From a virus, in the IMG/VR virus record IMGVR_UViG_3300022602_000058, positions 26,085-90,084 of that record: DNA of 64,000 nucleotides, one strand, 5' to 3'. Below, piece after piece: positions 38,294-39,085 of the stretch; within the stretch, counting starts at the first letter, position 1; each line of letters opens with the position of its first letter. Both the position numbers and the translations under genes were made by a program. The notes beneath the pieces are model-generated. The model was not told where the DNA came from. It ran no database searches and saw nothing but the letters and a program-made list of their open reading frames with translations.

Positions 38294-38377
38294 TAAAAAA
38301 CTCCTGAGTGTTATGATTTGTGTGAATAATATCAATACCATTCGCAGAAAGCTCATGCGAAAAGAACACTCAGGAGC
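38294..38377 (-). ncRNA. Predicted structured small RNA divergent from, and partly antisense to, the HNH nuclease mRNA 5' end
   Basis: 12-bp perfect inverted repeat 38301-38312/38365-38376; inner hairpin 38341-38361; T-tract on the minus strand; TAAATA 5 nt before the predicted +1; 38321-38338 matches gene start 38389-38406 at 17/18. Confidence 0.6.
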
Positions 38378-38390
38378 ATAAGTATTTATG
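38377..38390. promoter_or_regulatory. Bidirectional late-promoter quasi-palindrome CATAAGTATTTATG
   Basis: TAAGTA on + lies 5 nt before the GTG; TAAATA on - lies 5 nt before the RNA stem. Confidence 0.6.
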
Positions 38391-39085
38391 TGAATAATAT
38401 TAATACTCAAGAAATCTCCCATTATCAAAAAAATAAGCTCAAATATAATGAATCAAGTCGTGCCTACTATCAAAAGCATAAAGATAGAATAAAAGAAAAA
38501 GTAAGGCAGTATAACAAGGTTAATAAGGAGGCTGTTAATCAATCAAAGAAAAGGTATTATAGAGAAACAAAAGAAGCTAGAATTGCTTATTATGAATTAA
38601 ATAGAAAGCGTTTTGAAGAAGCGGCGCGGGTTCGTTATCGCGAGAATAGAGAAAGACTCCTTGCAATACAAAAACGATATTCAAGTAGTAATATAGGAAA
38701 AGAAAAGAGACAAAAGAGATCTCGCGAACGGTACCATAATGATCCCGTTTTCAAATTGACATACAGTATACGTGCAAGAATAAACATGGCTCTAAGAAGC
38801 TCTAGTACTCGAAAGAAAAATAATATTATAGAGTTATTAGGGTGTAGTATTGAACAGTTAAAAGACCATATTGAAAAGCAATGGACGTCAGGTATGTCAT
38901 GGGATAATCATACAAACAGCGGGTGGCATATAGATCATATTAAACCCTGCGCAGCATACAATTTAACAGATATTGAACAACAGAAAGAGTGTTTTAATTA
39001 TAAAAACCTTAGACCTATATGGGGAACAGATAACAGTTCAAAAGGTTCTATATATTGTGGCATACGTTATAGGTATAATTCTTAA
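38390..39085 (+). CDS. HNH-family homing endonuclease
   Basis: Basic helical N-terminal repeats; GWHIDHIKPC..CFNYKNLRPIWGTDNSSKG. Confidence 0.88.
   Translation: MNNINTQEISHYQKNKLKYNESSRAYYQKHKDRIKEKVRQYNKVNKEAVNQSKKRYYRETKEARIAYYELNRKRFEEAARVRYRENRERLLAIQKRYSSSNIGKEKRQKRSRERYHNDPVFKLTYSIRARINMALRSSSTRKKNNIIELLGCSIEQLKDHIEKQWTSGMSWDNHTNSGWHIDHIKPCAAYNLTDIEQQKECFNYKNLRPIWGTDNSSKGSIYCGIRYRYNS

Follow-up and report, generated by a model that had tools for sequence, protein, structure and literature searches.

A predicted antisense RNA that heads a mobile nuclease cassette of an uncultured T4-like phage

Why should a homing endonuclease gene be preceded by a hairpin whose loop carries a second copy of the first 17 nucleotides (nt) of that gene, start codon included? 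The question is raised by a locus (locus 1) in a 64,000-nt stretch of DNA, referred to here as the window, which covers positions 26,085-90,084 of the IMG/VR record IMGVR_UViG_3300022602_000058. The whole record (90,084 base pairs (bp), to be referred to as G000) is the genome of an uncultured T4-like lake phage, and the DNA is 35% G+C. The gene of locus 1 is an open reading frame (ORF) of 231 amino acids (aa) for an HNH-type homing endonuclease. It has a GTG start codon and lies on the plus strand, set between minus-strand genes at 37943-38257 and 39087-39788 (coordinates are those of the window unless noted otherwise).

The observations described below point to a small RNA that is transcribed divergently from the nuclease gene and would act as an antisense RNA, masking the 5′ end of a leaderless nuclease messenger RNA (mRNA). 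We consider this function moderately probable.

The repeated gene start and the minus-strand hairpin

The features of locus 1 are as follows.

38377 to about 38292, minus strand: predicted small RNA of about 85-86 nt, with its 5′ end at 38377, comprising stem P1, hairpin P2, an open segment and a U-run tail
38294-38300, minus strand: putative terminator U-run (six U, then A), also the left edge of the mobile unit; seen as an A-run at 38295-38300 on the plus strand
38301-38312, minus strand: 3′ arm of the outer stem P1 (from sequence, fold and covariation)
38322-38338, minus strand: anti-5′-end segment (copy A on the plus strand), complementary to nt 1-17 of the predicted mRNA with one G-U pair
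38341-38346 paired with 38356-38361, minus strand: inner hairpin P2, 6 bp with a 9-nt loop
38365-38376, minus strand: 5′ arm of P1 (from sequence and fold)
38377-38390, both strands: 14-bp near-palindrome with two overlapping late-type promoter boxes that point apart; its last base is the G of the GTG start
38390-38406, plus strand: copy B, covering nt 1-17 of the nuclease ORF and of the predicted leaderless mRNA, GTG included (from sequence)
38390-39085, plus strand: HNH-type homing endonuclease ORF, opposite to its neighbours
38294-39075, both strands: mobile unit made up of the small-RNA gene, the promoter pair and the nuclease ORF, defined by synteny with a related record (G002, see below)

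On the plus strand the order is therefore A-run, stem arm, spacer, copy A, P2, stem arm, near-palindrome and copy B. Copies A and B differ at one position (C vs. T), where the minus-strand RNA and the plus-strand mRNA would form a G-U pair. An earlier note on this DNA had drawn a minus-strand RNA from 38377 and a 17-nt loop segment that pairs without gaps, with one G-U, with the start of the HNH ORF. All of its coordinates and letters agree with the sequence, and so does the pairing. The RNA folds as drawn, at -28.3 kcal/mol compared with a mean of -15.3 kcal/mol for shuffled sequences (z score -4.64), and none of 200 shuffles is as good. P1 has 12-13 pairs, all of them standard, and encloses a loop of about 50 nt with internal structure.

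The repeat of the gene start was compared with a control set of 326 candidate starts, for ORFs of at least 60 aa, in the whole record. The 19-mer around each start was aligned with the DNA 20-115 nt upstream. An identity of 17/19 is reached by only two starts, 38390 and 41540, the next best being two ORFs at 15/19 and the rest having 13/19 or less. The start repeat at 38390 is far above chance. The direct repeats at this locus are spaced 68 bp apart, and short direct repeats in a recombination-prone phage invite deletion. Their persistence and co-variation (see below) suggest selection.

The same cassette at other nuclease genes

The second of these two starts, 41540, belongs to a gene for a LAGLIDADG homing endonuclease. 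A self-BLAST of the window finds upstream of it a second cassette (locus 2), with the same order of elements as locus 1: A-run, 12-bp stem, start copy, small hairpin, second arm and 14-mer.

41442-41537, minus strand: cassette of the same design, found by the covariance model (see below) with an expectation value (E) of 8.5e-17
41444-41449, minus strand: U-run
41450-41461 with 41512-41523, minus strand: P1
41470-41490, minus strand: anti-5′-end segment
41494-41505, minus strand: P2
41524-41537: palindrome, the reverse complement of the 14-mer of locus 1
41540-42397, plus strand: LAGLIDADG homing endonuclease ORF (285 aa), inverted relative to its neighbours

At least nine cassettes, eight of them distinct, are present across three IMG/VR phage records, G000, G001 (59 kilobases, kb) and G002 (130 kb). 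G001 and G002 were found through pattern scans of IMG/VR, and a covariance model was then built from four sequences. This model retrieves the locus 1 RNA with E 1.3e-24 and finds five extra cassettes in G002, giving six in that record, with none beyond the known ones in G000 and G001. Two of the G002 cassettes differ by one base, so that the nine cassettes count as eight distinct ones. All nine precede a plus-strand nuclease ORF that is surrounded by minus-strand genes. Seven of these ORFs have their full length (231-288 aa), whereas two are cut down to 44 and 72 aa. The cassettes of the truncated ORFs, both in G002 (L168 9848-10088 and L169 1787-2107), are intact, and the one at L168 9848-10088 duplicates the cassette at L168 428-531 almost exactly, neighbouring gene included.

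At locus 2 the true start of the LAGLIDADG gene is 41540, and the in-frame ATG at 41474 is copy A. No stop codon is found from 41474 to 41539, and as a result ORF callers extend the gene by 22 codons, which is an annotation trap. The same false extension is present in G002 (L168 12909-14003).

The pairing of P1 and P2 is maintained across the cassettes. In the nine-row alignment, which was fitted to the model and thereby favours the structure under test, standard pairs occupy 94.3% of the cells and 15 of the 19 pairs show changes on both sides. Neither value is attained in any of 500 column shuffles, and pairing falls to 39-46% when the partners are slid by 1-3 columns. For P2, five of the six pairs have two-sided changes. 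When P1 is taken from the minimum-energy fold of each sequence itself, it has 12-13 pairs and no mismatches in 9/9 cassettes.

The strand of the structure can also be assigned. P1 contains internal wobble pairs on the minus strand, G-U in cassette G002c and U-G in G002e, which would become A-C and C-A on the plus strand. Additional wobble pairs are present in P2 of G002a and G002b. The minus-strand RNA folds better than the plus-strand RNA in 8/9 cassettes, the exception being locus 1 (-27.9 vs. -28.3), and the U-run follows the stem on the minus strand only. On account of the wobbles, the fold stability and the U-run, the functional molecule would be the minus-strand RNA, and the data support a hairpin that is selected as an RNA structure on this strand.

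The 3′ end of the hairpin resembles an intrinsic terminator, having a stable, G+C-rich stem (12-13 bp in 9/9 cassettes) directly followed by a U-run, with at least five consecutive U in 6/9 cassettes. In comparison, intrinsic terminators have a short loop (3-8 nt), whereas the loop here is about 50 nt, is internally structured with a hairpin of its own, and contains the co-varying open segment. A simple consensus terminator scan does not list the locus 1 hairpin.

The loop is matched to the gene that it precedes. In all nine cassettes, the loop copy and the ORF start are identical from -1 or +1 of the predicted transcription start site (the last T or G of the palindrome) over 10-18 nt, and the match often extends further with small gaps. 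The start codon is inside the predicted duplex in 9/9 cassettes. At one position past the start codon, the bases of four related cassettes are C, G, T and A, and each loop copy matches its own gene. Among all 40,320 permutations of loops and genes for the eight distinct cassettes, the true assignment has the highest summed identity (100, vs. a mean of 74.6).

Pairing energies were calculated for a duplex restricted to the interior of the stem, together with the cost of opening both partners. The restricted duplex was used because cofold cannot keep the outer stem closed, and RNA cofold underestimates the loop-target pairing, while unrestricted duplexfold opened the stems. The mean energy, opening included, is -12.0 kcal/mol for cognate and -2.4 kcal/mol for non-cognate pairs. 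Locus 1 gives -12.7 kcal/mol with its own target, compared with -7.4 kcal/mol for the best of 17 other late-gene 5′ ends.

The earlier note had proposed, from locus 1, that the loop would block initiation on the nuclease mRNA. The nine cassettes strengthen two parts of this interpretation, the selection on the minus-strand hairpin (from covariation and wobbles) and the complementarity that each loop keeps to the 5′ end of its own nuclease; the block of initiation is still a prediction.

Coding functions of the same DNA were considered and rejected. Among four cassettes, the loop copy would be a short, stopped ORF in two and an in-frame extension of the nuclease in two, giving no consistent coding for an upstream ORF. 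For P2, the changes that preserve pairing would be non-conservative in a protein.

Predicted promoter pair, mobile unit and possible functions

The sequence TAAATA is found exactly 5 nt before ATG, GTG or TTG at 17 sites in the record, 15 of them at the start of an ORF of 60 aa or more. With spacings of 0-4 nt, only 0-2 such ORFs are counted. The genes with the 5-nt spacing include those for the tail sheath, baseplate wedge proteins and tail fibre (example sites in the window are 1897, 10054, 11433, 18965, 25857, 50083 on the minus strand, and 62202). T4 late transcription begins about six bases past the box. With this distance and the observed spacing, late messages would start at the start codon or at most 3 nt from it, and the late messages of this phage look leaderless. 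The premise of a leaderless nuclease mRNA in the earlier note is supported by this spacing preference. These sites, structural genes included, were compared with the T4-type late promoter, a TATAAATA-type -10-like box. T4 late promoters consist of this -10-like element only, with no -35 element (excerpt of PMC7892883).

The near-palindrome of locus 1 contains TAAGTA on the plus strand (towards the nuclease) and TAAATA on the minus strand (towards the small RNA), each 5 nt before a G. In all nine cassettes, this element has a box 5 nt before a purine on both strands (G, or A in G002a and G002b). The opposed boxes overlap by two base pairs, so that one polymerase probably excludes the other. At locus 2, a late-type box is located 8 nt before 41540. 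The boxes of the eight distinct cassettes are distributed as follows.

Rightward box (nuclease): TAAATA in 6, TAAGTA in 2, TATATA in 0, degenerate in 0
Leftward box (small RNA): TAAATA in 3, TAAGTA in 2, TATATA in 2, degenerate in 1

The cassette and the nuclease gene are part of one inserted unit. G002 is syntenic with positions 33886-41385 of the window, and the flanking proteins are 52-95% identical. At locus 1, the homology with G002 runs to 38293 and resumes at 39076, with 418 bp of other DNA in between in G002, and the inserted unit is therefore placed at 38294-39075. Its left end is the U-run and its right end is 10 nt short of the nuclease stop codon, which puts the RNA gene at the outer edge of the mobile unit. 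Variants without the element were looked for in contigs of four DNA runs, using only the covered parts as evidence, and a lake metagenome contig (run X6) joins 38272 to 39105 across 467 other letters. G002 has its own cassette and nuclease at the opposite side of the same phosphoesterase gene, and the unit thus occupies different intergenic sites in related genomes.

Locus 2 is inside a segment (41386-42371) that is replaced by 157 bp in G002. The G002 site (L331 1160-1473, homologous to 41386-42531 of the window) contains these 157 bp and a stretch with 69% identity to the last part (3′ end) of the LAGLIDADG ORF. The stretch looks like a remnant of a lost nuclease gene, and the site does not look like a pristine empty one. 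From the U-run to about codon 11, the DNA is common to the LAGLIDADG cassette and three HNH-type cassettes, which diverge after this point. The RNA module and the first codons have therefore passed between unrelated nucleases. The common N-terminal peptide has the form M-x-N-x-x-T-T-Q/R-E-L-S (L002 1390-1600 vs. L168 and L169).

The minus-strand genes just after the cassettes are preceded by σ70-like -35 and -10 elements (38258-38293 and 41409-41443 in the window, and likewise beside the cassettes in L003, L168 and L169). From the end of the -10 box to the ATG there are 6-8 nt, or 10 nt in one case, and because the boxes are so near to it, early genes may also be leaderless. At locus 1 this promoter is part of the resident DNA, outside the inserted unit.

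Together, the stretch would be the regulatory head of a mobile homing-endonuclease cassette. The two overlapping late-type promoters of the near-palindrome would fire in opposite directions, and both transcripts would be made late. The rightward transcript would be a leaderless nuclease mRNA (leader of 0-3 nt). The leftward one would be an RNA of about 85 nt, a P1 hairpin ending in the U-run and containing P2 and the open segment. With overlapping boxes, polymerase probably loads in one direction at a time. The open segment would pair with the first 10-18 nt of its own nuclease mRNA, start codon included. A 5′-terminal start codon that is covered should stop ribosome binding in leaderless initiation. 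Such pairing would cover the start codon that the ribosome needs at the 5′ end, and would lower the translation of a DNA-cutting selfish gene. The presence of the same RNA module at HNH-type and LAGLIDADG nucleases argues for a mechanism that is independent of the DNA specificity of the protein.

Other functions of the repeats have to be weighed against this antisense RNA. The copies of the start could act as DNA, forming an operator that binds a protein, for example the nuclease itself in an autorepression like that of I-TevI, with the hairpin only shielding the neighbouring gene as a terminator. The I-TevI operator lies over its late promoter and resembles the homing site at 15/20 nt (excerpt of PMC2988022). 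In the cassettes, copy B overlaps the promoter and the start site, and the stems are nearly all Watson-Crick, which DNA would also allow. On the other hand, the layout is identical at two unrelated nuclease folds, the repeat begins exactly at the predicted RNA 5′ end in 9/9 cassettes, and copy A is always in the open part of a fold whose wobbles suit the minus-strand RNA only. Moreover, a similarity of the copies to the empty target site could not be shown; G002 has other DNA there. An operator is unlikely. The kept, co-varying 10-18-nt start copy in the loop is also left unexplained if there is no separate small RNA, the hairpin terminating read-through from upstream minus-strand genes that is already antisense to the nuclease gene, with the loop adding little. 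The minus-strand gene at 39087-39788 does point into the nuclease gene, the leftward box is non-consensus in five of the eight distinct cassettes, and the hairpin with its U-run has the form of a terminator. Such read-through leaves unexplained, however, a near-palindrome with boxes 5 nt from a purine on both strands, and we take it to be unlikely.

If the small RNA is made and pairs, it could instead protect or activate the message, for example by shielding its 5′ end from 5′-end-dependent RNases. The pairing would cover the extreme 5′ end, and an antisense RNA that shields mRNA from RNase E in a phage infection has been reported (excerpt of PMC3113571). The predicted duplex includes the start codon in 9/9 cassettes, however, which should prevent ribosome binding on a leaderless mRNA, and a protective role appears improbable. 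Least of all do we expect the repeat to be a functionless product of chance or the scar of a duplication or target-site duplication, which would be very improbable. Short repeats are common in DNA of 35% G+C, but the level of 17/19 is limited to the two cassette genes in the control set, and the repeat co-varies across eight distinct cassettes. In addition, one arm of the outer stem lies outside the repeat that the stem spans, an arrangement not expected for an insert flanked by a duplication.

Several observations count against a dedicated antisense RNA that silences its nuclease. The leftward box has the consensus in only three of the eight distinct cassettes, which is the main internal argument against an independent promoter for the small RNA, and TATATA is not enriched before start codons. 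The weaker leftward box keeps alive the reading of the hairpin as the 3′ end of a read-through antisense RNA. The U-run is interrupted or poor in G002c, G002d and G002f. The anti-5′-end segment is partly in weak local stems, and opening it costs 10-15 kcal/mol (four cassettes). Specificity is imperfect, the cognate pair being the best in 6/8 rows and 5/8 columns of the energy matrix. Among the six cassettes of G002, the calculated energies predict cross-talk of d with e, and of f with a or c. Locus 2 has two true mismatches within its 17 nt, and its margin is thin, -9.6 for its own target vs. -8.9 for the best of the same 17 late-gene 5′ ends. An intact cassette needs no intact target, since two cassettes head the ORFs of 44 and 72 aa. 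Finally, the family is small. The cassette is missing at 79 other loci that encode homologues of the locus 1 nuclease, and the covariance model R2 finds no match at E ≤0.01 in any of 50 phage records (0/50) selected for a tail sheath related to that of this phage (39-82% identity). These 50 were searched out of 80 such records, the 30 left out being mostly contigs under 10 kb.

The nucleases, the distribution of the cassette and known systems

The locus 1 protein has the His and Asn residues of an HNH active site. Residues W179, H180, D182, H183, P186, N206, P209, W211 and N215 (W-H-x-D-H, P, N, P-x-W, N) are invariant in 35 aligned homologues. Its paralogues match PHROG endonuclease VII (E 2.6e-07), and GenBank lists a homologue in a Flavobacterium phage as a putative HNH endonuclease. 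None of the six cassette proteins matches a Pfam HNH family at E ≤5, and a profile of these six proteins matches no PDB chain at E ≤0.01. The HNH label used here is thus based on the motif, the PHROG matches of the paralogues and the annotation of one homologue, and it should be taken as putative. The locus 2 protein matches Pfam LAGLIDADG_3 (E 3.2e-08, 34.1 bits vs. a cut-off of 22.5) and PHROG endonuclease (E 1.1e-46).

Searches for further cassettes give few candidates. A search of IMG/VR with the 16-mer palindrome gives, among the matches listed, mostly chance matches and four loci with a stem. A relaxed, gapped pattern finds 13 stretches in IMG/VR, of which the real ones are two already known and the loci of this genome. 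A metagenome scan finds 12 stretches, of which seven repeat the two known foreign cassettes exactly or nearly so and five are due to chance, with no new variant. No cassette is found upstream of 12 homologues of the two nucleases. The covariance model R1, run on 91 loci, gives one weak match (L173, E 0.006) and two others at E >0.3. The L173 match (3525-3620, the same as L250 ~880-980 in record G005) has an 8-bp stem around a 9-10-nt copy of the nuclease start, and it is possibly a distant relative of the cassette. Its nuclease is of the same family as that of locus 1 and is inverted between two minus-strand genes, and a TATAAATA box precedes the stem on the plus strand. Across the whole record of L173, the model gives nothing at E ≤1.

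Three other endonuclease-like genes of this genome, two GIY-YIG genes and one weakly HNH_4-like gene, have a late-type box but no cassette. They are located at 35369-36034 (minus strand) in the window and at 6017-6823 (plus strand) and 10844-11479 (minus strand) in G000, and they comprise one GIY-YIG gene that also has NUMOD3, one gene that matches HNH_4 weakly and one SegE-like GIY-YIG gene. Their boxes are 5-8 nt before the starts, and one of the three genes is inverted relative to its neighbour. Megablast of positions 37000-40500 against cultured phages gives no match, and neither does a protein search with the ORF at 10054-11391 against cultured phages.

The cassette RNA has no counterpart in Rfam. 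There are no matches at the gathering score over the whole window, and for 38200-41700 at E ≤1 the only match is PK-repBA (18.7 bits vs. a gathering score of 45, E 0.74), which is taken as noise. Since no Rfam family matches, the RNA does not belong to the HEARO/ωRNA class.

Homing endonucleases cut DNA, and because of this they can persist only if they are made in small amounts or late. Known controls in the T4 family comprise hairpins within the nuclease mRNA, promoters and terminators of the host phage, and autorepression by the nuclease. Cis hairpins and late promoters control the nuclease in I-TevI, mobE and segB (excerpts of PMC3014915 and PMC2988022). As far as these excerpts describe them, the likeness to the cassette consists of a late promoter directly before the nuclease ORF, a hairpin nearby, and a nuclease that is kept low or late. 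Their hairpins, however, lie in the nuclease mRNA and hide the ribosome binding site on longer transcripts, whereas the cassette hairpin is on the opposite strand, upstream of the predicted mRNA start, and has no Shine-Dalgarno site to hide. Both of its arms precede the late-type box and the predicted start site, and copy B is unpaired by any stem. According to a 2010 review, T4 had yielded no characterised small regulatory RNA that acts in trans (excerpt of PMC3014915).

An antisense RNA next to a free-standing homing endonuclease gene of a T4-like phage is described in an excerpt of PMC12197685. This RNA, CfrI of cyanophage S-PM2, links psbA to the gene for the F-CphI homing endonuclease. 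According to the excerpt, it is about 225 nt, is cis-encoded, and overlaps its targets perfectly. In contrast, the cassette RNA runs from 38377 away from the ORF at 38390, and would be a separate molecule that uses a 10-18-nt copy and travels with the nuclease. In 'moraphages', which are large aquatic phages, homing endonuclease genes are paired with CcdA/HicB-like antitoxin genes, for which a control of the nuclease has been proposed (excerpt of PMC12619734). There too the regulator moves with the nuclease as a module, being a protein in that case and, as proposed here, an RNA in the cassette.

Type I toxin-antitoxin loci appear to be the closest in working. Divergent antisense RNAs are found in tisB/istR-1 and zorO/orzO. 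The loci dinQ/agrB and timP/timR are type I systems with a divergent, non-overlapping antisense small RNA (excerpts of PMC3567139 and PMC7667032). In the cassette, as in the excerpts on these loci, a small RNA is directed away from a harmful gene, has short, repeat-based complementarity, and would act on translation. At the sequence level, an adjacent antisense RNA gene with 10-18 nt of complementarity from +1 is present in 9/9 cassettes. The targets differ, however. Type I loci encode a small (<~60 aa) hydrophobic membrane peptide from an mRNA with a long, processed 5′ untranslated region (UTR), while the targets here are nucleases of 231-288 aa, in addition to the truncated ORFs of 44 and 72 aa, and the RNA would be directed to the extreme 5′ end of a predicted leaderless mRNA. 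Also unlike type I loci, the cassette promoters overlap in one palindrome, and the unit is in a homing element of a lytic phage. Full-text literature on homing endonucleases combined with antisense or small RNA, antitoxin, leaderless or divergent transcription, in which few subscription journals are covered, gives no account of this cassette.

A more general role can be put forward tentatively, and it is rather doubtful at present. The promoter pair, the small RNA and about 11 codons would make a portable RNA governor that is grafted onto unrelated nucleases, with RNA-target pairs that diversify like plasmid copy-control RNAs and coexist at up to six per genome. In a co-infection, a related element that comes in might also be silenced by the resident one.

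If the proposed control is true, it would be the first case of an RNA regulator contained within a mobile homing-endonuclease unit, and a natural case of control through the masked 5′ end of a leaderless mRNA. One regulatory module would then have been swapped between unrelated nuclease families. The RNA (about 85 nt) and the 5′ end that it pairs with (10-18 nt) would make a compact, testable pair for studying how leaderless initiation is shut off.

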